Of a DNA stretch of 61,599 nucleotides, positions 19,222-58,217 are shown piece after piece. Under the pieces are notes generated by a model. That model saw only the letters and a program-made list of their open reading frames with translations. It searched no databases and was not told where the DNA came from. The number at the start of each line of letters is the position of its first letter. Within the stretch, counting starts at the first letter, position 1. The position numbers and the translations under genes were made by a program. Source of the stretch: a virus; IMG/VR virus record IMGVR_UViG_3300027908_000007; one strand, written 5' to 3'.

Positions 19222-19295
19222 GGCCAGCTAGGCTAATTGGTAACGCCGCGATGCTCAAAACATCGTGAATTTCGGTTCGAGTCCGAAGCTGGCTA
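19222..19295 (+). tRNA. tRNA, anticodon CAA (Leu by anticodon; class-I body)
   Basis: 74 nt. Acceptor GGCCAGC/GCTGGCT, anticodon arm CGATG-CTCAAAA-CATCG (CAA at 19256-19258), T-arm TTCGG-TTCGAGT-CCGAA, A73. Confidence 0.8.
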
Positions 19296-20705: not shown

Positions 20706-21131
20706 ATGTCGAGAACCCAGCAATACGCCGACGACGAGATTCTTGAGGCCTTGCAGCTAACCAAGGGCAAGGTATACGATGCTGCCGACGTTATCGGCTG
20801 TTGTGCCGACACGATTTACGAACGGGCCAAATCCTGTCCAGCCATCCTCACGGCCATGAAGCACGCCAGGGGGAAGTTTCTCGACAAGTGCGAAGGCAAG
20901 CTTGAGGAAGCGGTTGATGCTGGCGAGCAATGGGCGATCAACCTTTCCCTGAAGACGTTGGGCCGCGAGCGTGGCTATTGGGACAAGACAGAGCAACAGC
21001 ACAGCGGTTCCGTCGAGATCAAGACGGTCACTACCGTTCGCCCGTCTACCGCCAAGCCTCTTGACGCTAATGGCTTTCTGGCCAGACAATCCCTAAATGG
21101 AACAAGCAACGGAACAAACGGCCACGGTTGA
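20706..21131 (+). CDS. terminase small subunit candidate
   Basis: N-terminal HTH-like segment and WAINLSLKTLGRERGYW motif, immediately upstream of the large terminase. Confidence 0.55.
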   Translation: MSRTQQYADDEILEALQLTKGKVYDAADVIGCCADTIYERAKSCPAILTAMKHARGKFLDKCEGKLEEAVDAGEQWAINLSLKTLGRERGYWDKTEQQHSGSVEIKTVTTVRPSTAKPLDANGFLARQSLNGTSNGTNGHG

Positions 21132-22936: not shown

Positions 22937-23152
22937 ATGAATGTAGTCGAGTTGATAGCCGATCAAGACGATTGTGCTTTCGACCAACCTTGCCGGTTCG
23001 GCCGTCGCGTGGAATGCCACGCCGTCTACTGCCACAACACGACATGGAAAGACGCTCCAAGGAAGTGTCATCGGTCAGCACAAGATCCAGAGTTCAGGCA
23101 CGAAGCCTGTCCAGGATTCGAGACCAATCCCGCAGCAGAGGCTAACCCATGA
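22937..23152 (+). CDS. small Cys/His-rich protein (71 aa)
   Basis: C-terminal part of ORF 22388..23152, starting at ATG 22937. ATGA-coupled to the portal. Confidence 0.45.
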   Translation: MNVVELIADQDDCAFDQPCRFGRRVECHAVYCHNTTWKDAPRKCHRSAQDPEFRHEACPGFETNPAAEANP

Positions 23153-25440
23153 ACTACATCCCTCGCAGTGCCGCCCGCTCCATGATCCGAGCCGAGCAGA
23201 AACGCCAGGTACGCTCTGCCATCAGAGGCACAGCCACCGGCGAGAAGATCATGGGAGCCCTGATGCCCGGCAGGGGCTACGCCTTCCCTGGGGGATGGTC
23301 GCAGGACCGCATAGCCCAAGTCCAGCACATGAAGGACTGGACAGGAGTTTGCATTGACAAGCTGGCCTCTCTCTGTGCTCAGCTAGTGCCTAACTGTGCA
23401 GCTGTAGTGGTGGGCAATCCCAAGAGTAGGCAGAAGGGCTATAGCCCCTATCGGCAGCAGCTTGACGGTCTGGCCACGGGCGTCCGCAAGATTCAGCGGT
23501 ATGACTGTGCTGGATATAGTTTCTCGAATCATCCCTATCACGCCAAGGCCCTGGGGGTAATCAAGCCAGAGGAAGAGCTAGAACCGCTTGCGTCCCGGCA
23601 TCCGTTACGCAGGCTAATAGAGTCTCCCAACGATTGGGACACGCAGTACGATCACGACTATGAACTGGTGATGTTTCAGTATCTCTGTGGTGTGGCCTAC
23701 GATTGGGCAGTGCCAGAATCGTACCACTGGGAGGATCACAAGGACTTCAGCACGCCGGTAGCCGATGGGCCGTTTGGTGATTATCCGCAAGAGTTGTGGT
23801 GCATACCGTCTCACTGGGTATGGCCGCGTAGTTCTGGTGGATCACTCGTCAGCCCAGAGCATCCTAATGCTGACAAGCTAATCGAGTACTACGAGATACG
23901 TCCTTGGGGTGGATTGGGCACGGCAGGGGTTATCAGAATCCCGCCAGAGCAGATTGTGCGGTACGCCTTCAAGTCGCCTATTAACAAGGTTGACGGCTGG
24001 GCACGCACGCAGATGGGGGCAGCATGGATCGACACGGACGATAGTATAGCTACCTGCCAGCGGTCGATGATGACCAACGGGATCTATCCCAGCTTTTGGC
24101 TGGAGATGGGCGAAGGATTCTCGGATCTGACGGACGACCAGGTAGACCGGGTAGAGGCGAAGATCTATGCCAAGCTCGGAGGGGAGAATCGGTTTGGGAG
24201 GCCGTTCATATCCTCTCAGGGGACCAAGCCTCATCCGCTGGTGTTTCCGCCGAATCAGTATGCCTTTGCTGACTCAGGGGACCAGTCGCGTAACAGGATC
24301 ATCGCCCTGTTTGGTCTTAACCTTCCAGTGCTGGGCATGAGCGAATCCCAGACGTTTGGGTCGGTGCTGGCAAACCTCATGTCGGTGTCGGTGCATACGC
24401 TGAAGCCGCTACTAACGGCGAATGGGCAGACCAAGACGAAGTTCCTGGCACGGTACTTCTCGACGCCACAGCGGCCGCTGAAGGTTTGGTACGACGACCC
24501 GACGCCGATAGATCCGCAGCAATTGAATCTTGATATTTCATGCGACGTGGCGTCCGGGTCGATAGTTCCGAATGAAATAAGGCTTCTGAGAGGACGCCCG
24601 CCATACGAGCACGGAGGAGACGACCCAATTCTGCCGATGGGCAGCATTCCCATGCCCCTCAACACTGGCCAAGACCTCAGCGACCTCGCGGAACTGGTGC
24701 CCTTGCTCGGGAGGCAAGAGAACCCGGCCGCAGAGGAAGAAGAAGCCGAAGCTGGGCTGGGGAGTCCGCAGGTGGAGGAGCCGAATGGCGGGCCGTCTAA
24801 ACGATGGGGAGGCAGGCTCAAGGGATTCAACGAATCCGACCACCCGCGAGGCCAACCGGACAATGCCGGCCAGTTTGGTCCCGCCTCTGGGGTTCCAGAG
24901 TCTTCGAGCGGCAAGCGTCAACCCAAGGAAGACGATCCGGTTAACGGATACTTGGGAGCCTTCAAGGAAGACAAGACGACGGAACCCAAGGAGATGGTCA
25001 AGGAAGCCCGCCAGGCCAATGCTGAACTACGCGACGAAGATTCCAAGTTTCGCATCGTCCCGGATGGCAAGGGAGGCTGGGATGCCAAGCACGTCAACGA
25101 CATTATCGACGACTTCGGTTCTAAGATATGGACTATTCGCGTCCATCCCTTGACAGGTATGCCCGATGCCGGAGATCCAGATTACTTCAAGGACATGGAC
25201 AATCTGGCAGGAGACAGGAGCAGTCAGTCGTATGTTCAAGCGTTCAATGATCCAAACGCGACTAAGGCCACTCAAGAAGACGCAGACAACGCCAATGCCG
25301 AACTAGCCGAAGAAGGCAGCAAGTACAAGCTGGTATTTAGCGACGAGTACGACCTCTGGATAGCAGAACCAGCCAAGCCACAGAAGTCCTACGGCCCTCG
25401 CTCCGCTCTACCCAAGTTCAGCACCAACGGAGTACACTGA
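23149..25440 (+). CDS. portal protein with a ~250-aa C-terminal extension
   Basis: 763-aa ORF downstream of the terminase in canonical position. Its C-terminal third is acidic/low-complexity and carries the DHPRGQPDNAGQFGPASGVP motif. Portal identity rests on position and size only. Confidence 0.65.
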   Translation: MNYIPRSAARSMIRAEQKRQVRSAIRGTATGEKIMGALMPGRGYAFPGGWSQDRIAQVQHMKDWTGVCIDKLASLCAQLVPNCAAVVVGNPKSRQKGYSPYRQQLDGLATGVRKIQRYDCAGYSFSNHPYHAKALGVIKPEEELEPLASRHPLRRLIESPNDWDTQYDHDYELVMFQYLCGVAYDWAVPESYHWEDHKDFSTPVADGPFGDYPQELWCIPSHWVWPRSSGGSLVSPEHPNADKLIEYYEIRPWGGLGTAGVIRIPPEQIVRYAFKSPINKVDGWARTQMGAAWIDTDDSIATCQRSMMTNGIYPSFWLEMGEGFSDLTDDQVDRVEAKIYAKLGGENRFGRPFISSQGTKPHPLVFPPNQYAFADSGDQSRNRIIALFGLNLPVLGMSESQTFGSVLANLMSVSVHTLKPLLTANGQTKTKFLARYFSTPQRPLKVWYDDPTPIDPQQLNLDISCDVASGSIVPNEIRLLRGRPPYEHGGDDPILPMGSIPMPLNTGQDLSDLAELVPLLGRQENPAAEEEEAEAGLGSPQVEEPNGGPSKRWGGRLKGFNESDHPRGQPDNAGQFGPASGVPESSSGKRQPKEDDPVNGYLGAFKEDKTTEPKEMVKEARQANAELRDEDSKFRIVPDGKGGWDAKHVNDIIDDFGSKIWTIRVHPLTGMPDAGDPDYFKDMDNLAGDRSSQSYVQAFNDPNATKATQEDADNANAELAEEGSKYKLVFSDEYDLWIAEPAKPQKSYGPRSALPKFSTNGVH

Positions 25441-26138: not shown

Positions 26139-26673
26139 TCTGTTCAACGGCAGTATTTCCAGGGACTTTCCTGACGGTAACGTGTTGATCCAAACCGTCA
26201 GCCACGACATGCCAGAAGGCACACAGATCGAGGCCGTGACGTTCGACGACTATAGCCGATGTTTCATGTTCCGATTGTGGCGTGCGGACTGGCCGGAAAT
26301 AGCGGAAGCGGCACACATACCTGATATCAACGTCACGTTCACGAGCCGGGATTTTACGCTGACTCCAGAAGCAAGCGGGATGTGGAGCAGTCATCCATCG
26401 TTCTGGCTGGAACTTGGCGAGAAGATGAACAGCCCAGAAACCGAAGCTAGGATCAAGGAGCTCGAAGCGAAGATCATGGCTAGCATCAACGCAGGAAATG
26501 CCGGTAAGCCGTTTGTTGCTCCTCCAGGGATCAAACTAGCCGACATCAAGGATATGTACGCCAAGCTACAGTTTACGCAGACAAGCCAGGAGATTGGCAA
26601 TACTGGAGACATCAGGTTGCTAGCTCCTGAAAGCGAAGAGACACGCAAGGTAAATTTCAGGGAGTTTTTATGA
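26053..26673 (+). CDS. hypothetical head-module protein, paralog family A (C-terminus KVNFREFL)
   Basis: GTG 26053 follows AAGGGGA. The C-terminal ~70 aa align with the 26670..27269 product. Confidence 0.55.
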   Translation: MQAYKNPTFVAPDRRYKLMKVSPELLLVNLFNGSISRDFPDGNVLIQTVSHDMPEGTQIEAVTFDDYSRCFMFRLWRADWPEIAEAAHIPDINVTFTSRDFTLTPEASGMWSSHPSFWLELGEKMNSPETEARIKELEAKIMASINAGNAGKPFVAPPGIKLADIKDMYAKLQFTQTSQEIGNTGDIRLLAPESEETRKVNFREFL

Positions 26674-27269
26674 GCGAACTAACCGAAGCCAAGCTTGAGT
26701 ACAGCATCCACAGCGACATGAGTGGAGTACATTTATTGCTCCGCAAGCGTGACACCATAGACCGCGAACGCGGCTTTGTGGGCGAGAAGCTCCCTATCCG
26801 CCGCGAGGACTTGGATACGCTCAAGACGGCGATACGGCAGTTCTTTGGGGATGAGGTTTGGCCAGAAGCGTGCTTGCAAGTCAATATCGCTTCTGGGGAG
26901 CCCATTCCGCCAGTCACCGCCAAGGCAATTCAGGACATGTACGTGAAGATGCAGCCTGGATTAATCAATCACGGAGCAGGGACGTGCAGTCACTGGCAAC
27001 CAGAAGCCAGCCAACCTGGAGAACCGTATAAGGCATGCGATAGGGAAGTCGTGGGCGGAATGAGGATTCCCGACGAACTCTTGCCTGCGATAGCGGCATC
27101 TATGAGTGAGCAAACCGACCAGCCCACACTAAACGGCATGCCGCTAGTGTTCACGCACAAGATTTGCCAGTTTGGCAACGGAGAGGAATTACGGCTGGTG
27201 GGGCCATCCAAAGTTAGCGAGCCTAGTGTCCCAGAGGCAGGCAAGGTCAACTTCAGGGAGTTCCTATGA
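26670..27269 (+). CDS. hypothetical head-module protein, paralog family A (C-terminus KVNFREFL)
   Basis: 199-aa ORF with an ATGA junction. Shares IQDMYVKMQ and KVNFREFL with 26053..26673, and an N-terminal LKTAIRQFFGDEVW motif with 27266..27466. Confidence 0.6.
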   Translation: MSELTEAKLEYSIHSDMSGVHLLLRKRDTIDRERGFVGEKLPIRREDLDTLKTAIRQFFGDEVWPEACLQVNIASGEPIPPVTAKAIQDMYVKMQPGLINHGAGTCSHWQPEASQPGEPYKACDREVVGGMRIPDELLPAIAASMSEQTDQPTLNGMPLVFTHKICQFGNGEELRLVGPSKVSEPSVPEAGKVNFREFL

Positions 27270-32766: not shown

Positions 32767-32957
32767 TGCCGGAAGTTATTGGCTATGGAACGCAGAGGTC
32801 TACAAAGCTTGAGCAGACGGTTCAGGCTTTTCGGGACCAGCTCGTTCAGGCTCAGAAAGAAAAGACTACTGGCCAGATCACGGCTCTGGTAGACTTGGGC
32901 GAAGGCGGGATCAATAGCAGTAAAATCGGAGTGGTCAAAAACGTCCTAACTAAATAG
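32766..32957 (+). CDS. hypothetical protein
   Basis: 63-aa ORF with a TAATG junction. Confidence 0.5.
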   Translation: MPEVIGYGTQRSTKLEQTVQAFRDQLVQAQKEKTTGQITALVDLGEGGINSSKIGVVKNVLTK

Positions 32958-33010
32958 TGGTCCCGTCAAAGCGGGAGTTCATCTCAGCCCTCCGGGGAAT
33001 TGAGCATGAG

Positions 33011-33044
33011 CCTGCGGGAGAAATCTCGCGGGCTTTTTCTTTTC
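33011..33044 (+). terminator. terminator-like or RNA-stabilising hairpin just upstream of the capsid gene
   Basis: CCTGCGGGA (33011-33019), GAAA loop, TCTCGCGGG (33024-32): 9 bp including 2 G:U pairs. Followed by CTTTTTCTTTT. Confidence 0.45.
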
Positions 33045-33055
33045 CTGGAGAACAA

Positions 33056-34474
33056 ATGGCAGCATTTTCCAATCAGACGGCGGTCAAGGACGTAGGCAAA
33101 GACCTCATGGAGAGGTTCGACAAGATCGAGAAGTTCTTTACCGACAAGGCTGAAAAGGAAGTCAAGCAAGCTCCGCGAATGGCCATGTCCAAGTTCGTTC
33201 CGGCGGGGACCGATCCGGGATGGGATCAGGATCACATTCAACGGCTCTCGAAGTCTTACGATCCAGGCAACATCGAACACCTGATGCGGATGAGCAAAGG
33301 TCGCGTCAGCCCGCATGGTTCCGCTATCAAGAAGATGTGCCTCGCTGGGATGCCGACTTATAAGTCTCACTACGAGCAGACGTACGGTGAGCTGTCTCCT
33401 GAAGATCGGGCATACGGTAACGAGCAGTTTGAGCGAGACTGCAAGTTTGTGCCGTGGTACTCGCTGGCCAACAAATCCATCCGCAGCGGGACGGGGGAGA
33501 TCCACAAGGCCAGCAACATGGCCGAGAACTCAGGCATCCTCGGTGGCTATGCCGTTCCTCCTGATTTCAGGAATCAGGTCCAGACGATTCAGGAAGAAGA
33601 GTCTACGATTCTGCCTCGCTGCATGCGGATTCCGCAGACGACCAAGACATCGACTTGGCCCATGCTGGACATCTTCACCAACTACGGAACCGGCAAAAGC
33701 CCTTACGAAGCGAACGTCTTCCAGTCGTGGCAGCCTGAAGCGGCCCTCATCAATCAAACCAATACCCAACTTCGCCAGTTCAATCTAAGCAACTGGGATC
33801 TCGTCACCTATATCGTCATCAGCAACGACCTGTTGCAAGACAACAGCGTTGGCCTGGACACGATCATCACGACCCTGTTGGCGAGTTCGGCAGGCTTCTA
33901 CATCGAATACGCCTTGATGAATGGCCTAGGCAGCAATAGTAGCATGCCCCTTGGTGTGCTTAATGCTCCTTCGACCATCGGCATCGACCGGCAGACCAGC
34001 AACACAATCACAATCTCTGACGTTCTCACGATGTACTCGCGGCTCCAGAGCCGGTCGTGGGATAGCTTCTGCTGGCACGCTCACCAGAGCACGATTCCGG
34101 CCCTTGCGGCACTCGTTAGCAACGCCACCACTGGTCAGTTCGCCTTGCTCGACCCGAACGGCCAGAACGGCATGGGGCCGTTGGCTGGGCGGATGGCTGA
34201 CAAGCTGTTCGGTGGTGCTCCGCTCTACTTCACGCAGACCTGCCAGCAACTAGGCTCGACGGGAGACTTGCGGGCCAACGACTGGAAGCACTACTTCGTA
34301 GGCGAGCGAATGGGGCTTCAGGTTGCTGTCAGCGACCAGTTCTTGTTCACGAATAATCAGATTGTGATTCGGTCGGTTCAAAGATTGGGCGGAGCGCCGT
34401 GGACCCCGACGACCATAACCGATGCACAAGGGTTCACTATTAGCCCATTTGTTTTGCTCGACGTACATTCCTAG
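33056..34474 (+). CDS. major capsid protein, HK97 fold, with a ~170-aa N-terminal (delta-like) domain
   Basis: ATG 33056 follows GGAGAA and the hairpin. Contains GGYAVPPDF, and the C-terminus FTNNQIVIRSVQRLGG is typical of HK97-type MCPs. GTG 32957 is rejected as the start. Confidence 0.75.
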   Translation: MAAFSNQTAVKDVGKDLMERFDKIEKFFTDKAEKEVKQAPRMAMSKFVPAGTDPGWDQDHIQRLSKSYDPGNIEHLMRMSKGRVSPHGSAIKKMCLAGMPTYKSHYEQTYGELSPEDRAYGNEQFERDCKFVPWYSLANKSIRSGTGEIHKASNMAENSGILGGYAVPPDFRNQVQTIQEEESTILPRCMRIPQTTKTSTWPMLDIFTNYGTGKSPYEANVFQSWQPEAALINQTNTQLRQFNLSNWDLVTYIVISNDLLQDNSVGLDTIITTLLASSAGFYIEYALMNGLGSNSSMPLGVLNAPSTIGIDRQTSNTITISDVLTMYSRLQSRSWDSFCWHAHQSTIPALAALVSNATTGQFALLDPNGQNGMGPLAGRMADKLFGGAPLYFTQTCQQLGSTGDLRANDWKHYFVGERMGLQVAVSDQFLFTNNQIVIRSVQRLGGAPWTPTTITDAQGFTISPFVLLDVHS

Positions 34475-34489: not shown

Positions 34490-35563
34490 ATGCCAACATC
34501 GCTACGCGACCACATGCGACGAAGGAAAGCCTCCATCCCGAAAGGATGGACTGGCTTCCTGTCGGCATTGCGTAATAGGCAGCACAAGCAGTTAGCGGAC
34601 ATGGGATCGGTTTTGGTATCGAAAGCATCGGTCCAGAACGAGTCGAGTGGTATCACAGGCGGCTATTCGGTGCCTCCCGATTTCAACCTGATGATCGCGA
34701 CGACCTACGAAGAGGAGTCGTTCTGGTATCAGCGGGCAACCGTGGTGCCGATGCTTAGCCTTGAGACGGCCTTGCCGATTCCTAATGCTTCGGCTCAGAC
34801 GGCTGGTACGGCTCCGTGGTTTGGCGGGATGGATCTAGGCTGGGTCGGGACGCCTATCGCCACTAACACGACGTTCTCGCAAGTCAGGCTGACCGCCAAG
34901 AGCTTGACCGGTGTCATCACGGTATCTAACGACCTCGCGGCGGACATGGGTCCGGGTGGCGACGAGTTCCTCTTTACCATCTTCGCTCGCGGGGCGGCGT
35001 ACTACGAAGAGCTAGCGTTCCTTCAGGGGACTGGAGTAGTCGCGGGAGGGTCTAGTCCTCAGGCTCAGCCTCAGGGGGTAATCAATGCTCCTGGAACGGT
35101 GGTTATTACTCGCAAGACCACGAACCAGATCAATCAGCAGGACGTTAATGGCCTTGCCGCCGCTCTTGCTCCGAAGTCGTGGACGAAGGCGATATGGGTG
35201 TGCAGTCCGACTGCTCTAGCTCAGGTTATGGCCATTACCGGATACGTTCCGAACCAGCAAAATGGCTTCGATACCGACCACGTATCGGCAGCCGGATCGC
35301 TCGCAGGCAGACCGTTGTTTGTGACCGACAAGGTTCCAGCCCTTGGGACGCAAGGTGATCTTGGATTGTACGATCCAAGCCAGTACGTGATCGGTGATAG
35401 GGCTGAACTGATTGTGCAAGCCAGCACAGAGAACAAGTTCACAAACAATCAGACGGTATATCGGATCTGGAGACGCCTGGACGGTACTCCGATCTATGGC
35501 AAGCCAATTACCCTAACGGACGGAGCTACGCAAGTAAGTTCGTTCGTCACTCTGTCCAAATAA
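34490..35563 (+). CDS. second HK97-fold capsid protein paralog
   Basis: GGYSVPPDF...EEES... and the C-terminal FTNNQTVYRIWRRLDG align with the preceding gene product. Confidence 0.7.
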   Translation: MPTSLRDHMRRRKASIPKGWTGFLSALRNRQHKQLADMGSVLVSKASVQNESSGITGGYSVPPDFNLMIATTYEEESFWYQRATVVPMLSLETALPIPNASAQTAGTAPWFGGMDLGWVGTPIATNTTFSQVRLTAKSLTGVITVSNDLAADMGPGGDEFLFTIFARGAAYYEELAFLQGTGVVAGGSSPQAQPQGVINAPGTVVITRKTTNQINQQDVNGLAAALAPKSWTKAIWVCSPTALAQVMAITGYVPNQQNGFDTDHVSAAGSLAGRPLFVTDKVPALGTQGDLGLYDPSQYVIGDRAELIVQASTENKFTNNQTVYRIWRRLDGTPIYGKPITLTDGATQVSSFVTLSK

Positions 35564-36578: not shown

Positions 36579-38153
36579 GTGAGCGAGCAGATTGAAAAAC
36601 CAATTGTCTTCATAGCCCACATCTCTTACGGACTATGCGTGCGGGCGTCAGCAAGGCAAGTAGATTGCCATACGCTCAAACCCGACGACCCCTATCAGCC
36701 AATCAGGTACAACACTGGATTCTCCTTGCTGGCCCATGCGTTTAATGATGCGTGGTGCCAGGCGTTGAATCAACAGAAACTCGGCATGAACATCAAGTAC
36801 TTCGTGATGCTTCATGACGACATCGTTCCTGAGGACTGGTGGGTCCGCCAGCTTATCGACGACATCGAGCCGACCGACTTCGACATGGTTTCCGCTCTGG
36901 TTCCTCTCAAGGACACGTCGGGAGCTTCGAGCACGGCCGTAGACAAGTTCGGCAATAAGCACGAGCAATGGAATCCGTCTCCTGGGGACCAGTATCTCTG
37001 GGAACGTCGAGTCACCATGAAGGAAGCAGCCAAGCTCCCAGCGGTGTTCACAGCGGCAGATTGCGGCTACGCCGATAGGCGTCTCCTAGCGAATACCGGC
37101 TGCTGGATCTGCCGCTTTGATCGCCCCTGGAGGCACGAGACTGACGAGCATGGCAACCTGAAGATGTTCTTCAAGATCGACAACCGCATTCACATGAACA
37201 ACGGCAACTGGACTGCCGATTGCGAACCTGAAGACTGGTTCTTCTCTCGACAACTCCAAAGACTCGGCGGCAAGGTTGCGGTGACTCGAAACGTGAGGCT
37301 GACGCATTACGGGCTAACTCCTTACCCGAACTACGCCAAGTGGGGATGCGATTACGACAAGGCTTTCGCGGAGAACGTCGGCTACACGCCCATCGGTGAA
37401 AAGCAGCCCGACATTAACTTCAGCTATGACTCGACTGAATTCCCAGACGTGCGGGGCTTCCTGAACGACGACGAAGGCAGATTGCTTGCGGAGATTGCCA
37501 AGGATAAGAGCGTTCTGGAGATCGGCTCTTATTGTGGTCGGTCGACGATCTGGATGGCTCGCACGGCGAAATCAGTCCTTGCGGTGGATACCTGGAATGG
37601 CAAAGGCATGGACGGGGAAGACACCCTTGCGGTGTTTACAGAGAACATCTGCCGCCACAAGGTCGCCCACAAGATCGACATTGCCGGGGGCACGATCAAA
37701 GCGACCAGGAAGGCTAACGGCTGGTACGAAGGCTCTCCGCACTACAACCCTGAAGGCTGGCCCTTCCAGTTCATCTTCATTGACGCCGGCCACACCTTCG
37801 AGGAAGTACAATCGGACATTGACGAATCACTCCCGTTGTTGTCCACGGACGGCCTTGTAGCTTTCCACGACTACGCGAGGGCGATAGATCCTGGTGTGAC
37901 TCAGGCGGTAGATTTGTTAATCAAACAGGGTGCGGAAATTGTAGCCCGTGCCGGTACAGTCATTGTTTTGAAGGTGCAAAATGTCAGACGAGAAACAAGA
38001 ACAAGCGGAGAAGGACCGGCAGAAGAACGCCACCTTGGCGGACCTGAAACAAATGGTTTCGGAGCAAGCCAAGAGCATCGAGACGCTGACGCAGCAAGTA
38101 GCATCGTTGCTGGTGAATCGGCAGCCACTTTCTCAGCAGTCGTCTCAGCATGA
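36579..38153 (+). CDS. GT-A glycosyltransferase-like domain fused to a class I SAM-dependent methyltransferase (Methyltransf_24-like)
   Basis: GTG 36579 follows AGGAGG. The N-terminal half has MLHDDIVPEDWW and EDWFFSRQLQRLGGKV. The C-terminal half has VLEIGSYCGRST...FIFIDAGHTFEEV...LVAFHDY. The last ~55 aa look like run-on sequence. Confidence 0.6.
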   Translation: MSEQIEKPIVFIAHISYGLCVRASARQVDCHTLKPDDPYQPIRYNTGFSLLAHAFNDAWCQALNQQKLGMNIKYFVMLHDDIVPEDWWVRQLIDDIEPTDFDMVSALVPLKDTSGASSTAVDKFGNKHEQWNPSPGDQYLWERRVTMKEAAKLPAVFTAADCGYADRRLLANTGCWICRFDRPWRHETDEHGNLKMFFKIDNRIHMNNGNWTADCEPEDWFFSRQLQRLGGKVAVTRNVRLTHYGLTPYPNYAKWGCDYDKAFAENVGYTPIGEKQPDINFSYDSTEFPDVRGFLNDDEGRLLAEIAKDKSVLEIGSYCGRSTIWMARTAKSVLAVDTWNGKGMDGEDTLAVFTENICRHKVAHKIDIAGGTIKATRKANGWYEGSPHYNPEGWPFQFIFIDAGHTFEEVQSDIDESLPLLSTDGLVAFHDYARAIDPGVTQAVDLLIKQGAEIVARAGTVIVLKVQNVRRETRTSGEGPAEERHLGGPETNGFGASQEHRDADAASSIVAGESAATFSAVVSA

Positions 38154-52407: not shown

Positions 52408-52556
52408 TGGAAGATCAGATCAATCCTTGGGTGGCCGGTTCCGTGATCGGCATCCTTGCTTTACTCTGTGGATTTCTCGCAGAATATCCAAGGATAAAGG
52501 AAATCAATCGCGTCAACAAGCTTTATCGAGATCGACAAGAAAAGGAGTCCCGTTAA
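52407..52556 (+). CDS. small single-TM protein (49 aa; holin-like architecture)
   Basis: Hand translation MEDQINPWVAGSVIGILALLCGFLAEYPRIKEINRVNKLYRDRQEKESR; TGATG and TAATG junctions. Confidence 0.45.
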   Translation: MEDQINPWVAGSVIGILALLCGFLAEYPRIKEINRVNKLYRDRQEKESR

Positions 52557-53251
52557 TGCGTCCGCTATTCCTGTCCCTTCTGGCCCTCCTCGCCATCGGC
52601 TCAGTACGTGCCGACGACTGCGTGCGGAGCCGGGCGGTTTACTCGACCTACATCGCCCCGAGCGTGGTTGCCGTGCCGACTTACGCTTACACTACCAACT
52701 ACGCCTACCAGCAAACTCTCTTGGTCCCTCAAGTGCTCGAAGTGGCCACCTACGCACCTAACCACGTCTACTCGATAAGCTCAGAGTTTCAGGCGGCACA
52801 ATTCCTTGACGCCGTGACTCGGCACGACAAGGAGATTCGCGACTCATTGCAGCAAGGGCAACCAACTGGTCAGTTGCCACAGCAACCGCCTCCGCAGCCC
52901 GTCCAGGCTCCTCCAGTCGCTCCAGTGCCTCAGCCTGTCCAGCAGCCGGCGGTGCAGCCCAGAGCGAGCATGGGTCCAGTGCGGCCTAGTGCGTTCCAGG
53001 ACGCGAACCTAATTGCTCTGATTCAGTCCAAATGCGTAAAATGCCACAGTCCCGGCAGCAAGCGTTTGCAACTACTCACGACGGATGGCAAGGGACTTGC
53101 AGACTTGTCTAGACTGGAGTCTCTGACCACATATTGGATGGTCAACACGGGAGCCATGCCAAAGACGACGGAGCCAGTAGACCCAGCCAAACCGGAAGTG
53201 CCGGATTCAGCTATGCCGTTGTTTGCGAAGTGGATCGAGGCGAGCAAATGA
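52556..53251 (+). CDS. secreted protein with a planctomycete-cytochrome-c-like (PSCyt1-like) CxxCH domain
   Basis: Signal peptide MRPLFLSLLALLAIGSVRADD, a P/Q-rich linker, then LIALIQSKCVKCHSPGSKRLQLLT...TGAMPK. AAAGGAG RBS before ATG 52556. Confidence 0.6.
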   Translation: MRPLFLSLLALLAIGSVRADDCVRSRAVYSTYIAPSVVAVPTYAYTTNYAYQQTLLVPQVLEVATYAPNHVYSISSEFQAAQFLDAVTRHDKEIRDSLQQGQPTGQLPQQPPPQPVQAPPVAPVPQPVQQPAVQPRASMGPVRPSAFQDANLIALIQSKCVKCHSPGSKRLQLLTTDGKGLADLSRLESLTTYWMVNTGAMPKTTEPVDPAKPEVPDSAMPLFAKWIEASK

Positions 53252-53568
53252 GAAAGTTGAAGTCCGACCAGCCCGGATACTTTGAGATATTCGAGGGAGA
53301 CGGAGATAGCGGATGGTACTTCGCTTGCAAATGCCCATGCGGTTGCCAATACGATGACATAGTGCCAATTTATCGTGTTGGCGTTGCACAGAAGCATGTT
53401 CACAATGTGGCTTGGCAGTGGGACGGAGATCTACAAAAACCCACGCTAGTTCCGTCGTTCAAAAGGCATACGCCATGCGGCATTCACTTCAACATAACTG
53501 GCGGCAAACATGTCCGCCACGATGATCCCGGAACCGCCCAGCTTGCGTCAAATGTTTATCAAGGTTAA
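53248..53568 (+). CDS. hypothetical Cys-rich protein
   Basis: ORF 53134..53568 trimmed to the coupled ATG 53248; contains CKCPCGC. Confidence 0.5.
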   Translation: MRKLKSDQPGYFEIFEGDGDSGWYFACKCPCGCQYDDIVPIYRVGVAQKHVHNVAWQWDGDLQKPTLVPSFKRHTPCGIHFNITGGKHVRHDDPGTAQLASNVYQG

Positions 53569-53584
53569 CTTAGGAGTCTCAATC

Positions 53585-54109
53585 GTGAAAAGTCTTGGTA
53601 TCGCAGTTCTCGCTTTCTTCTGCCTCGTGGGCAGCGTCGAAGCCAACCCCGCCCGTGGCCGGCAGGTCATCCGCCAACGCACGGTCATCCGTGGCGGCGG
53701 GGCACGCTTCGGCGGTGGTGCCCGGTTCATTGGGCCAGGTTTCTCGCGTGGACGAATATTCTCGGCTTCTGTAGCTGTCGGTGGCGTTGGGTACAGTTCG
53801 TTTAACTCTGCTGTCTACGCTCCGCAGGTCGTGGTGCAGCCGGCTTTCGTGCAATCGGCGGTTTACGCGGCACCCGCCGTCGTGGTCCCGCAGGTCAGTT
53901 ACATCTCGGCAGTCCAGGTGGTTCAGCCTCAAGTGGTCGTGCAGCCTGCCGTAGTTCAGGAAGCGGTAGCAGTCTGTCCTACGGTGGCCGTACAACCTGC
54001 CTTTGTGCCAGCCGTGGCCAGCTACGCCACTGGATACGCTGGTGGGTGCGGACTGGGGTCGGTAAGTGGTTCCGTGATTCGTCAGCGGACCAGCATCAGG
54101 ATTCGGTAA
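53585..54109 (+). CDS. secreted V/Q/P/A-repeat protein
   Basis: GTG 53585 follows AGGAG. Signal peptide VKSLGIAVLAFFCLVGSVEA. VVQPA-type repeats are bracketed by VIRQRTVIR and VIRQRTSIRIR. Confidence 0.55.
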   Translation: MKSLGIAVLAFFCLVGSVEANPARGRQVIRQRTVIRGGGARFGGGARFIGPGFSRGRIFSASVAVGGVGYSSFNSAVYAPQVVVQPAFVQSAVYAAPAVVVPQVSYISAVQVVQPQVVVQPAVVQEAVAVCPTVAVQPAFVPAVASYATGYAGGCGLGSVSGSVIRQRTSIRIR

Positions 54110-55016: not shown

Positions 55017-55307
55017 ATGAAAAGCCCACGACAGAAACGCGAAGATGCTCTCAGGGACGCCTATAACCTCAAAGACGACGTTGCGTTTGAGGAAGCGATC
55101 AATGCTATGGCCGCTCACGAGGAAAGCCTTCACCAAGAAATCGTCATGTACCGAGACGCCTTGAATGAGATCGCATGGCCAAAGGACACCATCAACGGAC
55201 CTTTGCCGCGTAAGATTGCCATTCGTGCTCTCGACATTTCCACTGTCGGGCAGAGGCTCAAAAAGATGTTCGCCAATTGCGTTCAGCCTGTAGAGGTCAA
55301 GCCATGA
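55017..55307 (+). CDS. hypothetical protein
   Basis: 96-aa ORF. Confidence 0.5.
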   Translation: MKSPRQKREDALRDAYNLKDDVAFEEAINAMAAHEESLHQEIVMYRDALNEIAWPKDTINGPLPRKIAIRALDISTVGQRLKKMFANCVQPVEVKP

Positions 55308-55576
55308 TAAACGACGTTGGTTCTGTCGAAGAACAGATCGACCTGTACGCCCTCCAGAATGGCCGCATGAACTTTCTGCGGCAGGCGTTCTCGCTGTGGC
55401 TTCAGGTCAAATTTGTGCTCCAGAAAAAGGGCTTCACGCTTCAACGCATACTGGCTAACCTGCCCAAGATAGTCCCGGTTCTGTTCAGTGGCATGCCGTT
55501 GCCGAAGATAATTTCCAAGTGCGTTTCGATAATACGGCACAAGCACAGGCGTTGCCGGAAAGGCCGGTGGAGTTAA
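55304..55576 (+). CDS. hypothetical protein
   Basis: The coupled ATG 55304 favours this strand, but the antisense ORF 55283..55618 is equally long, so the strand is uncertain. Confidence 0.35.
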   Translation: MINDVGSVEEQIDLYALQNGRMNFLRQAFSLWLQVKFVLQKKGFTLQRILANLPKIVPVLFSGMPLPKIISKCVSIIRHKHRRCRKGRWS

Positions 55577-55578: not shown

Positions 55579-55728
55579 ATGGGACCAGCCAAGATTCCCT
55601 ATCCGCAAGCCCCGCCAAACGTCATAGACAACTCCCGCGATGCCTTTGCTGCTGGCCTGGCAATCGGCTTCATGGCAACAGTCTTCGCTTTTGTCGCCGT
55701 GGCGATAGTCGCAATATTGTTTTTCTAG
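55579..55728 (+). CDS. small C-terminally anchored membrane protein
   Basis: ATG 55579 within ORF 55519..55728; hydrophobic tail AIGFMATVFAFVAVAIVAILFF. Confidence 0.45.
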   Translation: MGPAKIPYPQAPPNVIDNSRDAFAAGLAIGFMATVFAFVAVAIVAILFF

Positions 55729-55767
55729 CGTCGATTTCCAAAACCTGCCGTCCTAAGAGTAATACCA

Positions 55768-55929
55768 ATGAAGAAACCGCAAGACGAAACCTTGGTAGCC
55801 AAGATCAATGCCGCCCTAGAGCTGGCTACCTATGAGCAAGACAAAAAAGACAAACAGTTTGAAGAACTTCGACAGGCTGCCATAAAGTTTCTTATATCTC
55901 AGATAGCCAGCAGAATCCGAGGCGAGTAA
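55768..55929 (+). CDS. small protein (53 aa)
   Basis: Hand translation MKKPQDETLVAKINAALELATYEQDKKDKQFEELRQAAIKFLISQIASRIRGE. Preceded by the conserved AACCTGC...CCTAAGAG motif. Confidence 0.45.
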   Translation: MKKPQDETLVAKINAALELATYEQDKKDKQFEELRQAAIKFLISQIASRIRGE

Positions 55930-55973
55930 ATCGCTGCCGTTATTACCCCAACCTGCTTTGACCTAGAGGGAAC

Positions 55974-56678
55974 ATGAACTCTATTTATGCAAGAGCACAT
56001 CGCCTCTTGAATCTTAAAGACTTCTCTACCTATCATCCCCCCGAAGATTGTGGAGAATGGACCTCTCTGCCACCAGATGAACGCCAGTACATTCTGAGAA
56101 TGTTAGTTCAGCGGCCTGGAGATCGCGGACTGTCATTGCCAGCCGAATTGCGTTGGCTAAAAGATGTCATCTTCAAGACATGGAATCTTCAAGAAGACAA
56201 CGGTCTGGCACCTTGGAGAGACTTCGTTTACGTCACCGTTCGGCACGGTCTTGTCACTTCTGAATTAGATGACGCTTGGCACGTCGATGGTTTTTCTATG
56301 CGATACCCGCACCGTCCAGAGCAGAATTACATTTGCTCGAATATCTTCCCGACCGAAGTTCTAAATCAGGCATTCGACATTCCTGCCGATTTTGATCCTC
56401 GCAGACACAACATTCACCTGTTCTTTCAAGACAATTCTGATTACAGCAAGGCATCTGGCCTGATTGCCAACAGGATCTTCCTGATAGATCCCTACATCGT
56501 CCACCGAAGGACCAACGTGCCAGTGAATGCTGTGCGGACGTTCTTTCGCATATCGTTCATACCCATCGAAATTGACGACGACAGTTGCACGCCAAATCCC
56601 TTGTTGCCTAGTAAGCGATACAGCCGCGACGGTGTGAAAGAATATCGCGACAAATTGATTCGATATGTGCGTTCCTAA
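55974..56678 (+). CDS. 2OG/Fe(II)-oxygenase-like (cupin/PhyH-like) protein candidate
   Basis: WHVDG (HxD), a downstream YIVHRR (distal His) and RTFFRISF (Arg-x-Ser). Preceded by the conserved upstream motif. Confidence 0.4.
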   Translation: MNSIYARAHRLLNLKDFSTYHPPEDCGEWTSLPPDERQYILRMLVQRPGDRGLSLPAELRWLKDVIFKTWNLQEDNGLAPWRDFVYVTVRHGLVTSELDDAWHVDGFSMRYPHRPEQNYICSNIFPTEVLNQAFDIPADFDPRRHNIHLFFQDNSDYSKASGLIANRIFLIDPYIVHRRTNVPVNAVRTFFRISFIPIEIDDDSCTPNPLLPSKRYSRDGVKEYRDKLIRYVRS

Positions 56679-56708
56679 TCCCTAAACCTGCTGACCCTAA
56701 GAGGAATC

Positions 56709-58157
56709 ATGTCTGGACAAAAACAGATCGTATTTTGCACGACGGTACGAAATCGTTTGGCTCACCTTCAGGCAACGCTCCCCGTCAATCTAGGCGGCAA
56801 TCCGTTAGCCAAATTCGTCGTCCTGAACTACAACTCTCCCGACAACCTTCTCGACTATCTCCGCGATATGTTCCAACCCGAGATCGAATCTGGCCGGCTC
56901 ACGGTCTACAGTTACTTCGACTCTCCCGTCTTTCAGATGGCGAAAGCCAAAAACATGGCACACCGCTGCGGCATCCTGGAGGGTGCCGATGTCCTCGTGA
57001 ACTTGGACGCCGATGGCTACGCCGGGGCCAACTTCGACCGCTTTATTCTCGACAAGTTCGAGGAACACGGCGAAGACATCCTCTTGCAGGCCATGTGGAA
57101 CCGCTGGGTGATGGGTAAACGCAAGAAGCGATGGGTATGCCAGGACGAGAACGGAACCTGCCTGCCGCCCGTTCCCAAGGGCAGTAACGGCCGCATGGTC
57201 GTCACGACGAAAGCCTTCTGGATGGCTGGAGGCTATGACGAGAAGTACAACACCTGGGGACCAGACGACAAGGACTTCAACATCCGCCTACGCCGACTCG
57301 GCATGGTCCCGCACTTGATCCCTCACGAGCACCTCGAGACAGTCCTGCACAACGACAAGGTGCGATTCCGAGACTACCCAGAGGCAAAGGACACGAAGAG
57401 CTATGAGTTCAGGATTTCGGTCCACGACTCAGAGGAGACGATAGCCAATTTCGGGAACGTCGGGTGCGGAAGAGTCTACAGGAACCTAGATCGTGGACAA
57501 GGACTGTTTGTTGAACGAGCAGAATGGATGGCCAAGAACAATCCTCGCATCGACATCGGCCCTATCCCTACCCGAGTCTTCGGTATCGGCATGCACAAGA
57601 CCGGAACGACCAGTCTTCACCACGCCTTCGAGATTCTGGGCTTCAAGTCGTCGCACTGGCCGAGTGCCCATTGGGCCAAGCAAGTCTTCACGGAGATGAA
57701 GTACAGCGGGCAATCGCCCCTCCTGGACAAATCCTACGCCGCCTGCGACCTGCCGATTCCGTTGCTCTACAAAGAGCTAGACAAGGCCTATCCAGGGTCG
57801 AAGTTCATCCTGACCGTGCGGAGCGAGGAATCGTGGTTACAGAGCGTGGAACGGCACTGGGACGAGCGGTTTAACCAGTATCGTTGCCGATGGGATACCG
57901 ACCCGTTCACGCATCGGGTTCACAAGGAACTATACGGGCAGAGGAACTTTGACCGGGAGGTGTTCTTGGCGAGGTATCGTCGGCACAATGCAGAGGTGCG
58001 TGAACACTTCAAGAATCGACCGGGAGACCTTCTGGACTTGAATCTGGAAAGCCTGCCATTCAAGACCTGTGCGTGCGAATGGGAGCCTCTCTGTGCGTTC
58101 CTGGGACATCCAGTGCCGAATGTGGAGTATCCGCAGAGCTATCGAACCGTGACGTGA
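56709..58157 (+). CDS. GT-A glycosyltransferase domain fused to a PAPS-type sulfotransferase domain
   Basis: The N-terminal half has VVLNYNSPD...NLDADGY...GGYDEKYNTWGPDDKDFNIRLRRLGM. The C-terminal half has GMHKTGTTSL (5'-PSB loop), FILTVRSEESW and YRRHNAEVREHF. Confidence 0.65.
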   Translation: MSGQKQIVFCTTVRNRLAHLQATLPVNLGGNPLAKFVVLNYNSPDNLLDYLRDMFQPEIESGRLTVYSYFDSPVFQMAKAKNMAHRCGILEGADVLVNLDADGYAGANFDRFILDKFEEHGEDILLQAMWNRWVMGKRKKRWVCQDENGTCLPPVPKGSNGRMVVTTKAFWMAGGYDEKYNTWGPDDKDFNIRLRRLGMVPHLIPHEHLETVLHNDKVRFRDYPEAKDTKSYEFRISVHDSEETIANFGNVGCGRVYRNLDRGQGLFVERAEWMAKNNPRIDIGPIPTRVFGIGMHKTGTTSLHHAFEILGFKSSHWPSAHWAKQVFTEMKYSGQSPLLDKSYAACDLPIPLLYKELDKAYPGSKFILTVRSEESWLQSVERHWDERFNQYRCRWDTDPFTHRVHKELYGQRNFDREVFLARYRRHNAEVREHFKNRPGDLLDLNLESLPFKTCACEWEPLCAFLGHPVPNVEYPQSYRTVT

Positions 58158-58179
58158 TCCACTTCGGTGGGGTGCCAGA

Positions 58180-58212
58180 CCTCTCCCCTTTCTATGCAGG
58201 TTGGGGGAGGGG
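58180..58212. terminator. hairpin between convergent genes (weak terminator candidate)
   Basis: CCTCTCCCC (58180-88) pairs with GGGGAGGGG (58204-12), 9 bp with one G:U pair and a 15-nt loop. No T-tract. Confidence 0.25.
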
Positions 58213-58217
58213 CTGGC

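Follow-up and report, generated by a model that had tools for sequence, protein, structure and literature searches.

A glycosyltransferase-sulfotransferase fusion gene of tailed phages and its oxygenase-like neighbour

Introduction

What a phage would do with a glycosyltransferase and a sulfotransferase joined in one polypeptide, and whether the oxygenase-like gene directly before them takes part, are the questions raised by two genes near the right-hand end of a 61,599-nucleotide stretch of viral DNA (IMG/VR record IMGVR_UViG_3300027908_000007), which was analysed as a whole and is called the window here. Phage glycosyltransferases (GTs) are a known means of restriction evasion, receptor change and virion decoration, whereas, to our knowledge, next to no work has addressed sulfation in phages. 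An earlier, sequence-only reading of this DNA had assumed a phage origin, which is supported by the presence of terminase, portal and major head genes, i.e., the window is a tailed-phage genome, and had proposed that the two genes, together with a small ORF before them, formed one cassette.

The Two Domains of the Fusion Protein

Both genes were found on the + strand where they had been placed, the oxygenase-like gene at 55974-56678 (234 aa) and the fusion gene at 56709-58157 (482 aa), and the translation of the latter contains the segments that had drawn attention to it (NLDADGY, GGYDEKYNTWGPDDKDFNIRLRRLGM, GIGMHKTGTTSL, RSEESW and YRRHNAEV). That it joins a GT to a sulfotransferase was borne out by the AlphaFold/Foldseek folds of both halves and by Pfam, where the match of the GT half is marginal, and because the AlphaFold (AF2) model has a pTM of 0.90 for the whole chain (pLDDT 89.4), the arrangement of the two domains is predicted to be fixed. 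Neither a signal peptide nor a TM segment was seen in the sequence. Conservation within the fusion was counted over 40 homologs.

The sulfotransferase half (57570-58154, + strand, aa 288-482) is a Sulfotransfer_4 domain by Pfam (PF17784) and Foldseek. The PF17784 match lies well above its cut-off (126 bits versus 22.8, E 2.5e-36), aligning aa 289-477 with profile positions 1-209 of 215; phmmer matched the domain to the sulfotransferase SULT-OR (4mua/6b4x) at E 5e-8, and Foldseek paired it with SULT-OR, Cpz8 and SgdX2 (E 5e-10, TM on the target 0.55-0.75). The 5'-PSB loop, GIGMHKTGTTS, conserved among homologs in the form GxGxHKTxTTS, lies at 57582-57614 (+) and includes K297, which, along with G292, G294, H296, T298, S302, D347 and the pair H426-N427, is present in 40/40 homologs. 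D347 (57747-57749, +) is a putative catalytic base, since phmmer aligned it to the "TDLP" Asp of 6b4x, the catalytic base of SULT-OR. The residues R371...S379 (57819-57845, +), present in the window protein and in 34/40 and 35/40 homologs, respectively, may be a 3'-phosphate-binding pair, to judge from the alignment with the RD..W..S block of SULT-OR. In a subclade of 4/40 homologs, L and A replace R371 and S379, and since both are lost there, donor use may vary. The sequence-only reading had named failed profile searches and a variable PSB loop as the outcomes that would speak against its sulfotransferase or GT assignment; neither was found, as the PSB-loop residues are invariant among homologs.

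The N-terminal half (56709-57494, + strand, aa 1-262) was assigned as a GT-A domain from Pfam, Foldseek and conserved residues. In Pfam, Glyco_transf_7C was only marginally above its cut-off (24.2 bits versus a GA of 23, over 46 residues) and Glyco_tranf_2_2 was below (20.5 versus 27.3), and precomputed tables assign PF02709 and/or PF10111 to many of the fusion homologs. The GT assignment is supported by the fold and an invariant DxD: Foldseek gave a probability of 1.0 to K4CP (2z86), PmHS2 (8vh8), GalNAc-T2 and a Leptospira GT, and also paired this half with many viral GT-A models. When a profile of the GT half (A3) was searched against the PDB, the GGYDE..WGxDDxD block brought up K4CP and beta4GalT7 (E 0.007-0.009), with the acidic block WGPDDKD (aa 183-189, + strand) aligned to "WGGEDNEF" of K4CP. 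The DxD itself, D100-A-D102 (57006-57014, +), is invariant in 40/40 homologs, as are E178, D186, D187, D189 and H214, the last being 27 residues past the WGPDDKD block and a putative third metal ligand. An insertion at about aa 128-157 is lineage-specific. The identities of both domains and of their catalytic residues were established in silico in this way, and UDP-sugar transfer followed by PAPS-dependent O-sulfation is a well-supported prediction of the fusion's chemistry.

The Oxygenase-Like Gene and Its Leader

The HxD...H...RxS spacing that had been read in the upstream gene, a member of phrog_1843, is present as H103-V-D105 (56280-56288), H177 (56502-56504) and R192-I-S194 (56547-56555), all on the + strand, and among 50 homologs H103, H177, R188 and R192 are invariant (50/50), with D105 in 49/50 and S194 in 48/50. 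The AF2 model of the protein (pLDDT 94.3) has as its top 50 Foldseek PDB matches nearly exclusively 2OG/Fe(II) dioxygenases or related non-haem-iron enzymes, although structural similarity in these matches is weak (E 6e-4 to 5e-3, probability 0.7-1.0, TM 0.3-0.4). The sole sequence-level match was phrog_1843 itself (E 2e-19), whose function is unassigned; sequence and profile searches of Pfam, NCBIfam and the PDB, which took in the protein itself, 50 family members and the family profile, were without a match at E up to 1-10. The claim of a 2OG/Fe(II) oxygenase has the conserved triad and a weak fold similarity in its favour and drew no Pfam, NCBIfam or PDB sequence match, and we call the protein oxygenase-like by its predicted fold and conserved triad only. 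A TET/JBP/AlkB-type oxygenase was considered and rejected, there being none among the top 50 Foldseek matches and no match in Pfam.

The common leader that had been reported before the small ORF, the oxygenase-like gene and the fusion was confirmed. It has the form AACCTGC-N3-5-CCTA(A)GAG-N5-8-ATG and stands ahead of three consecutive genes on the + strand, at 55742-55767 (AACCTGCCGTCCTAAGAGTAATACCA then ATG), 55950-55973 (AACCTGCTTTGACCTAGAGGGAAC then ATG) and 56685-56708 (AACCTGCTGACCCTAAGAGGAATC then ATG, the 3' half Shine-Dalgarno-like). A search of both strands of the 61.6 kb with the pattern CCTGC-N2-9-CTA(A)GAG gave exactly three matches, at 55744, 55952 and 56687, and the leader copies end 5-8 nt ahead of the ATGs at 55768, 55974 and 56709. 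First-order Markov simulations gave a mean of 0.27 such patterns, with 2/500 reaching three, and with the AA prefix a mean of 0.01, with 0/500 reaching three; since the pattern was defined post hoc, its placement outweighs the p-value. The three copies are unstructured as RNA, the start sites of other window genes are of the CTAGGAGG / TAAGGAG type, and related leaders are also found ahead of the fusion in two other phages (L005 and L002). The leader copies imply shared expression signals in this phage. The gaps between the leader-bearing genes are 30-44 nt, and no convincing terminator was found between them; a strong hairpin at 58174-58217, between the fusion stop codon and the convergent minus-strand genes (MFE -36.4 kcal/mol versus a shuffle mean of -26.2, z = -3.3), is a candidate bidirectional terminator closing the rightward transcription unit.

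In the window and in two syntenic relatives (L005 and L183), the fusion is at the 3' end of the structural/tail operon, past Peptidase_S8 and large tail-region genes. The left edge of the window's extra cargo is marked by a 99-aa ORF (55277-55576, +), of which a homolog (39% identity, E 8e-19 by BLASTP) lies directly upstream of the fusion in L005, at 9683-9961. Then come a small hydrophobic ORF with a single TM-like segment (55579-55728, +), which belongs to the window-specific cargo and for which tblastn found no homolog in L005 or L183, and a 53-aa ORF with the common leader (55768-55929, +), without homologs in related loci. The structural module of the window also contains an O-methyltransferase-type protein; a "DNA methyltransferase" label in the window was rejected, the protein being of the Methyltransf_24 / O-methyltransferase type.

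The proposal of one cassette found no support on comparison with other phages. L005 and L183 have the fusion without the oxygenase-like gene, which is also missing from the 6-10 kb around the fusion at all of 57 loci (0/57), and there is zero overlap between the 51 viral contigs with the fusion and the 42 with the oxygenase-like gene, whose family is hosted mainly by jumbo-type phages of 100-455 kb. The oxygenase-like gene is an independent passenger and not a conserved partner, an independence demonstrated in silico, and in general a leader held in common and adjacency in one phage should not be equated with a functional cassette.

Distribution of the Fusion

The rarity that the sequence-only reading implied for the fusion did not hold, as it proved to be a large family among the proteins of uncultured phages, with over a thousand protein clusters. 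Its homologs in metagenomes number 1,348, typically 50% identical, and the best 120 of them are almost all full-length at ~50% identity; 51 IMG/VR contigs carry it. Full-length fusion loci in cellular species genomes came to 2/185,579, i.e., a restriction to phages that was likewise established in silico. No full-length homolog was found in GenBank phage records, which gave one match, 32% identical and to the GT half only, and nothing in BFVD was closer than 16-21% identity. The sequence-only reading was aware of no characterised phage enzyme of this kind, and in the literature searched no publication on a GT-A/Sulfotransfer_4 phage fusion was found either.

The carriers are phage-like contigs of 40-230 kb with a GC content of 36-67%. 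Across the 57 loci there was no common neighbour family except a papain-like protease (12 loci), and the annotated neighbours in other phages are mostly of DNA metabolism: DNA polymerase, helicases, methyltransferases, HNH nucleases and RNR. When the families of 150 flanking ORFs were listed, one structural match was among the top 25. Tailed phages carry the fusion as an accessory gene that stands alone and is horizontally mobile. The near absence of the fusion from cellular genomes suggests that the carriers are mostly not integrated prophages, which weakens the case for a lysogenic-conversion-type role, and this near absence, the conservation of the gene and the 36-67% GC spread together suggest that phages have recurrently put sulfated sugars to a use of their own.

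Proposed Role and Its Rivals

As a whole, the fusion is best explained, tentatively and with somewhat less than even confidence, as a cytoplasmic, self-contained bifunctional enzyme. For the donor sugars, reaction order, acceptor and benefit to the phage, we infer the following. The GT-A domain would use a nucleotide sugar as donor, probably a UDP-hexose or UDP-HexNAc, and attach its sugar to a hydroxyl of the acceptor, a step served by the metal-binding DxD, the WGxDDxD block of the beta4GalT/chondroitin-synthase type and the C-terminal His ligand. The rigidly packed Sulfotransfer_4 domain would then O-sulfate the product using host PAPS, the supply of which is assumed, most simply on the newly added sugar, and no dedicated partner would be needed. 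The oxygenase-like gene and the 53-aa ORF would have been acquired independently, at an insertion site upstream of the fusion that varies, and both would be expressed via their leader copies as part of the 3'-terminal stretch of the rightward operon. The ~50% identity maintained across phages of 36-67% GC and unrelated neighbourhoods argues for a broadly conserved acceptor at the cytoplasmic face, and our first choice would be an undecaprenyl-linked, GlcNAc-type envelope-glycan precursor, on which a sulfated-sugar cap would change or prevent the display of glycans on the surface of the infected cell. As a precedent, TarP of S. aureus, a solitary prophage GT-A enzyme, remodels a wall glycopolymer from the cytoplasmic side. 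Against an envelope role, the solved sulfotransferases nearest to the fusion have small molecules and not polysaccharides as substrates; at none of the loci is it flanked by genes for envelope glycans (flippase, polymerase, Gtr-type), and the DNA-metabolism neighbours are at least equally compatible with early, anti-defence or nucleic-acid roles. The fusion would be a compact, soluble bifunctional enzyme for the synthesis of sulfated glycosides, and its acceptor, once identified, would reveal either a new mode of surface remodelling or a new way in which virions, DNA or metabolites are covalently modified.

The best of the rivals, though unlikely, is virion decoration, in which structural proteins (capsid, tail, fibres) would be O-glycosylated and then sulfated in the cytoplasm before assembly, so that virions acquire a coat of charged glycan with effects on adsorption, stability or recognition. 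Mycobacteriophage virions are glycosylated by phage GT-A enzymes, the GT domain of the fusion resembles the peptide O-GalNAc transferase GalNAc-T2, and its position at the end of the structural/tail operon in the window, L005 and L183 speaks for this reading, as does the O-methyltransferase-type protein in the same phage's structural module; the papain-like protease, the sole recurrent neighbour, also hints at a protein substrate. However, structural genes rarely adjoin the fusion elsewhere, as the single match among the listed families attests, no enrichment of Ser/Thr-rich tracts or collagen-like repeats was found nearby, and the fusion is highly conserved among phages whose virion proteins are unrelated, which favours an acceptor that they have in common.

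In a further reading, which we consider quite improbable, a soluble host metabolite, signal or antiphage compound is glycosylated and sulfated, and so inactivated, sequestered or created, for anti-defence or metabolic takeover. SULT-OR, Cpz8 and SgdX2, the closest solved sulfotransferases, are small-molecule enzymes, a solitary gene in early/DNA-metabolism neighbourhoods is typical of takeover or anti-defence, and conservation across diverse hosts predicts a conserved acceptor; yet no candidate compound is known, the closest GT relatives use glycans or peptides, and known defence or anti-defence genes were not linked to the fusion in the inspected loci.

About as improbable is a three-step cassette, in which the oxygenase-like protein hydroxylates, the GT glycosylates the new hydroxyl and the sulfotransferase sulfates, for which collagen lysyl hydroxylation and glycosylation provide an analogy. 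Adjacency, the same orientation, the common leader and the short gaps speak for it, as do the invariant triad and DSBH-like fold of the oxygenase-like protein. Iyer et al. 2010 (PMC2938197) predicted bacterial operons in which a 2OG dioxygenase adjoins a sulfotransferase, with collagen-like or tail-collar proteins as targets, a proposed hydroxylate-then-sulfate logic like that suggested for the window's gene pair; however, the pairing in the window is not conserved, its dioxygenase-like family is a different, unclassified one and there is no adjacent collagen-like or tail-collar target, nor was a collagen-like target found in the window. The retention of the fusion without its neighbour in L005, L183 and all 57 loci, and the disjoint contigs, with the oxygenase mainly in jumbo-type phages, weigh against it further.

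A broader idea, and a long shot, is a phage-specific "sulfoglycosylation" that marks phage DNA or virion proteins for anti-restriction or anti-recognition by means of one portable gene. On DNA, it would yield a sulfated glycosyl base, with the hydroxyl supplied in this phage by the neighbouring dioxygenase, and if true, sulfation would be a new class of phage hypermodification. For DNA hypermodification as such, Ghaly et al. 2024 (PMC10829341) cite Iyer et al. 2013 for phage nucleotide modification systems based on GTs and sulfotransferases. This reading, with the sugar of a glycosylated hydroxymethyl-pyrimidine sulfated for protection from host nucleases and the oxygenase-like neighbour as source of the hydroxyl, is very improbable, since, despite flanks in other phages dominated by DNA-metabolism genes, the window yielded neither a hydroxymethylase nor a TET/JBP or DNA polymerase, its "DNA methyltransferase" is of the O-methyltransferase type, the oxygenase-like gene is dispensable in relatives and its model resembles no TET, JBP or AlkB structure among its top 50 matches. 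GT-A enzymes do glycosylate DNA in the base-J and TET-phage systems, but we know of no precedent for sulfated DNA.

Comparison with Known Systems

The T4 alpha- and beta-glucosyltransferases, the TET-associated GTs, TarP and the mycobacteriophage GTs modify DNA, wall polymers or virions and so change recognition; unlike the fusion, none is known to have a sulfotransferase domain. The heparan-sulfate N-deacetylase/N-sulfotransferase NDST1 combines glycan modification and PAPS-dependent sulfation in one polypeptide, but this enzyme of the eukaryotic Golgi has a deacetylase in place of the GT, and its sulfotransferase is of the heparan-sulfate type and not Sulfotransfer_4; homology is confined to the general sulfotransferase fold. 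Closer to the sulfotransferase domain are SmSULT-OR (4mua), Cpz8 (9kf1) and SgdX2 (8y9p), which share its Pfam family, fold and PSB-loop Lys at 24-26% identity; each of them consists of a single domain and has drugs or natural-product intermediates as substrates, whereas the sulfotransferase of the fusion follows a GT-A domain. The GT half has in common with beta4GalT7 (3lw6), K4CP (2z86), PmHS2 (8vh8) and human GalNAc-T2 the GT-A fold, the DxD and the GGYDE...WGxDDxD block with a downstream His, although its sequence likeness to K4CP and beta4GalT7 extends over ~45-75 residues only (E ~0.007-0.009). It lacks the second GT domain, lectin domain or membrane anchor of these enzymes and has a sulfotransferase as its partner. 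K4CP, the E. coli K4 chondroitin polymerase, and PmHS2, the P. multocida heparosan synthase 2, are, like the fusion, two-domain glycan-builders.

The fusion protein and its two domains

The gene at 56709-58157 on the plus strand, which encodes a 482-aa fusion of a glycosyltransferase (GT) and a sulfotransferase (ST), and the 234-aa oxygenase-like gene directly upstream of it (55974-56678, plus strand) both lie exactly where the sequence-only reading had placed them, and every peptide motif quoted from them was found in the translations. In Pfam searches the C-terminal half was matched by Sulfotransfer_4 (E 2.5e-36, aa 289-477) over profile positions 1-209 of 215, Glyco_transf_7C (aa 161-206) reached 24.2 bits, barely over its 23-bit cut-off, and Glyco_tranf_2_2 scored under its own. 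The AlphaFold2 model, for which 40 homologs were used, was confident (pLDDT 89.4, pTM 0.90), and its high pTM implies that the GT and ST domains are held in a fixed arrangement. Foldseek searches of the PDB returned the Schistosoma SULT-OR enzymes, Cpz8 and SgdX2 for the C-terminal half (target-normalised TM 0.55-0.75, 24-26% identity) and K4CP chondroitin polymerase, heparosan synthase 2, GalNAc-T2 and other GT-A enzymes for the N-terminal half, whose profile also matched K4CP and beta4GalT7 (E 0.007-0.009) via a GGYDE...WGxDDxD block.

Invariant positions among 40 full-length homologs comprised, in the GT domain, the DxD (D100, D102), E178, D186, D187, D189 and H214 and, in the ST domain, the PSB loop (G292, G294, H296, K297, T298 and S302) together with H426, N427 and D347, the last of which aligns with the Asp of the SULT-OR TDLP motif. 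As modelled in silico, the fusion is thus a DxD GT-A enzyme with a catalytic block of the beta4GalT/chondroitin-synthase type, whose rigidly attached partner is a sulfotransferase of the PAPS type that has the full PSB loop and a catalytic Asp, and both domains look catalytically competent. The profile searches had been expected either to bear out the two domain assignments or to sink them; since the catalytic residues are invariant and the profiles and folds match, both assignments stand. There is no signal peptide or transmembrane segment to be seen in the sequence, so the enzyme is expected to act in the cytoplasm.

Two further features vary within the family. R371 and S379, the predicted 3'-phosphate ligands, occur in 34 and 35 of the 40 homologs, respectively, and the window protein has both; in one subclade of the fusion alignment (P0005, P0016, P0017 and P0025) they are replaced together, by L and A, and the PSB loop is kept, a pattern that, judged from the sequences, could reflect the use of another sulfate donor or decay of the ST function. 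The subclade of the window protein has an insertion of about 30 aa in the GT domain (AMWNRWV...PPVPKGSNG, aa ~128-157, 57090-57179), modelled as beta-strands and missing from about two thirds of homologs.

Distribution and genomic neighbourhoods

A word-indexed search produced 1,348 homologs of the fusion, the best 120 of which were almost all full-length at about 50% identity, and clustering at 50% reduced the full-length family to roughly 20 representatives, surrounded by many stand-alone sulfotransferases (about 200 aa, around 40% identity) and GT-only proteins. The contexts of the fusion were phage-like, one of them, on a 230 kb contig, including genes similar to T4 gp13 and gp25, and the GC content of the carrier loci ranged from 36 to 67%. 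Among 185,579 species-representative genomes, the full-length fusion was present on just two MAG contigs (35 and 65 kb, in Alphaproteobacteria bins), all remaining matches being single-domain; PHROG and Pfam scans of the neighbours of these two nominally cellular loci revealed nothing that told phage from cell. GenBank phages gave no DNA match and no full-length fusion homolog, with one partial protein match, and BFVD contained nothing nearer to the fusion than 16-21% identity.

When ORFs were called and clustered in 57 fusion loci, the neighbourhoods proved almost entirely idiosyncratic. The sole recurrent neighbour, found in 12 of the 57, was a papain-like cysteine protease of ~275 aa, usually encoded immediately downstream of the fusion (for example at 8088-8933 of locus L004 and 1422-2306 of L115, with 10 others), the profile of which matched PDB 3ois (E 4e-13) with C66 and H204 invariant; the window has no such protease. 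The top 25 PHROG families from 150 flanking ORFs were mostly DNA polymerase, helicases, methyltransferases, HNH nucleases, RNR and terminases, with one nucleotide-sugar epimerase and one structural protein. Two kinds of candidate target were also sought and set aside. Collagen-like (GXY)n proteins, an idea taken from Iyer et al. 2010, numbered none in the window and occurred in 2 of 56 loci, and mucin-like Ser/Thr tracts, suggested by a TTSTSSTTTTTTT protein of L183, a syntenic relative of the window, showed no enrichment versus control loci.

The oxygenase-like gene and the proposed three-gene cassette

The 234-aa protein falls in phrog_1843, a PHROG without assigned function, and had no match in Pfam, NCBIfam or PDB sequences; 50 members of its family, scanned singly, likewise had none in Pfam, and the family profile had none in the PDB. 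Its AlphaFold2 model was very confident (pLDDT 94.3), and the Foldseek neighbours of that model were almost exclusively 2OG/Fe(II) dioxygenases (probability about 1, but with E a modest 6e-4 and up and TM low at 0.3-0.4), including EFE, SptF, ColD, HygX, AviO1, EvdO2, ThoJ and prolyl hydroxylase, with no TET, JBP or AlkB structure among them. Across the 50 homologs H103, H177, R188 and R192 are invariant, D105 is present in 49 and S194 in 48. The proposal that this gene encodes a 2OG/Fe(II) oxygenase is supported by the putative facial triad and, more tentatively, by the fold class, and not by formal family membership, as no profile matched; we call the product a divergent 2OG-oxygenase-like protein. 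The phrog_1843 family resides mainly in very large phages (contigs of 100-455 kb), amid many small unannotated genes.

The sequence-only reading had gone further and joined this gene, the fusion and a 53-aa ORF (55768-55929, plus strand) into one apparent cassette. Syntenic relatives, the 57 loci and the contig lists all speak against that. A syntenic relative, L005, has 68-75% blastn identity to the window at 49.2-53.7 kb and 56.8-58.2 kb; its fusion is the nearest homolog known in this analysis (80% identity), but it lacks the 234-aa gene. Directly upstream of its fusion is instead a 92-aa ORF homologous to window 55277-55576 (39% identity, E 8e-19), which indicates that the window carries extra cargo between the 55277-55576 gene and the fusion, namely a small hydrophobic ORF, the 53-aa ORF and the oxygenase-like gene. 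L183, a further relative, with Peptidase_S8 synteny, also has the fusion and lacks the oxygenase-like gene. None of the 57 fusion loci contained a homolog of the 234-aa protein, and when it, the 53-aa ORF and neighbouring ORFs were searched by tblastn against fusion loci, the fusion alone was shared. IMG/VR yielded 51 contigs with the fusion and 42 with the oxygenase family, the latter mostly jumbo-type and 100-455 kb long, and no contig had both. What survives of the earlier interpretation is its enzymology and phage context; the three-gene cassette does not. In L005 the fusion homolog (10001-11415) is broken at about aa 303 into ORFs of 325 and 146 aa; the assembly is nanopore-derived, and the break is probably a frameshift error and not a real split.

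A repeated leader

What the three genes do have in common is a leader, AACCTGC-N3-5-CCTA(A)GAG, that in three successive genes lies 5-8 nt ahead of the start codon (ATG at 55768, 55974 and 56709), the two cargo genes nearest the fusion thus each having a copy. No further copy was found on either strand of the window, and simulation gave an expectation of 0.27 copies, falling to 0.01 when the AA prefix was required. The 3' half resembles Shine-Dalgarno-like sites elsewhere in the phage, such as CTAGGAGG and TAAGGAG. The promoter scan found no sigma-70 promoter at the leaders, and a role as RNA structure was discarded, since all three copies fold worse than shuffles (z +0.9 to +1.4). The gaps between the leader-bearing genes are 30-44 nt and hold no convincing terminator, and downstream of the fusion stop codon, facing convergent minus-strand genes, lies a hairpin (58174-58217) of marked stability (-36 kcal/mol, z = -3.3). 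Given the shared leader, the short gaps and this hairpin, a single transcript probably covers the three genes, which close the rightward operon, and translation of each would start from an initiation region of one common type.

Related leaders precede the fusions of L005 and another locus, L002; as a family-wide signal the leader was rejected, since most homologs of the fusion, and those of the 234-aa protein, do not have it upstream. Elsewhere in the window another two leaders, nearly identical to each other (ggcaaggtNaaNttcagggagttNNtATG, ~26640-26669 and ~27236-27265, plus strand), stand ahead of successive genes, so locally repeated leaders recur in this phage. The repetition suggests a hyperplastic insertion spot at which the leader would serve as a junction or an expression signal, perhaps comparable to the mobile regulatory cassettes of T4-type phages.

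Proposed reaction and candidate acceptors

Phage GTs are well known, and bifunctional glycan enzymes have precedents in K4CP, PmHS2 and NDST. The GT and ST domains are each from known families, and the searchable literature gave no account of a GT-A-Sulfotransfer_4 fusion in phages or elsewhere. Some members have been annotated automatically by JGI as 'Sulfotransferase domain/N-terminal domain of galactosyltransferase', so the architecture is already in databases, though uncharacterised. Restricted to phages and built from two known enzyme families, the fusion implies phage-driven sulfation of a glycoconjugate, and it is widespread, conserved and experimentally tractable. The GT domain would transfer a sugar from a UDP-sugar onto a hydroxyl of the acceptor, with inversion if the analogy to beta4GalT is valid, and the ST domain would next O-sulfate the product with host PAPS.

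The fusion is strongly conserved among phages that differ greatly, as do the GC contents of their hosts, and needs no partner, which leads us to expect a broadly conserved acceptor. The evidence that separates the candidates is weak and partly contradictory: the gene stands at the end of the structural operon in the window lineage and among DNA-metabolism genes elsewhere, and the solved relatives of the ST are small-molecule enzymes where those of the GT act on glycans or peptides. We tentatively place first an envelope-glycan precursor on the cytoplasmic face, e.g., an undecaprenyl-linked GlcNAc-type intermediate. Virion proteins, which would suit the operon position in the window lineage and not that in other phages, are a rather unlikely second. 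A soluble metabolite or signal, as the ST relatives would have it and the GT relatives would not, is doubtful. Slightly lower still ranks the pathway coupled to the oxygenase, for which predicted bacterial operons of a dioxygenase and a sulfotransferase acting on collagen-like or tail-collar proteins (Iyer et al. 2010, PMC2938197) are a conceptual precedent, not borne out here. Sulfotransferases and glycosyltransferases are among the co-occurring AMGs of a virome (Ghaly et al. 2024, PMC10829341), and that paper refers to Iyer et al. 2013 on phage systems that modify nucleotides by means of GTs and STs; DNA as the acceptor of the fusion is nevertheless highly improbable.

The phage genome

The window is a tailed-phage genome, with a large terminase (21097-22374), a portal (23149-25440), one prohead protease/scaffold-like protein and two major-head-protein-like genes, which are adjacent on the plus strand (32957-34474 and 34490-35563) and each of which has a match to phrog_10, a family of major head proteins. 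From ~8.9 kb to 58.2 kb nearly all genes are on the plus strand. An SF2 helicase is also encoded, as are a DnaJ-domain protein (19648-20280, plus strand, PF00226, E 2.6e-18) and six tRNAs, of which five are clustered tRNA-Leu genes (18917-19295, anticodons gag, taa, tag, cag and caa) and one is an unusually long tRNA-Phe (7034-7128, 95 nt). The gene at 36579-38153 (plus strand), located between head and tail genes, has a 524-aa product that is a DNA methyltransferase according to PHROGs and Methyltransf_24/O-methyltransferase-like according to Pfam, and may be another tailoring enzyme instead of a DNA methylase. On the minus strand, 1981-3306 encodes a protein with matches to PAPS_reduct (E 1.7e-12) and DUF3440 (E 3.6e-34), which gives this phage, besides its PAPS-type ST, another PAPS-related fold.

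Just upstream of the variable region are two plus-strand genes for low-complexity proteins with signal peptides (52427-53251 and 53510-54109), one rich in P/Q, its C-terminal part bearing a CVKCH haem-c-like motif, the other with VVQP repeats. The haem-c-like motif of the 52427-53251 protein, itself weak, is the only hint of a possible Planctomycetota host. Both proteins are kept in L005, and in L183 the equivalent place is taken by the mucin-like TTSTSSTTTTTTT protein.
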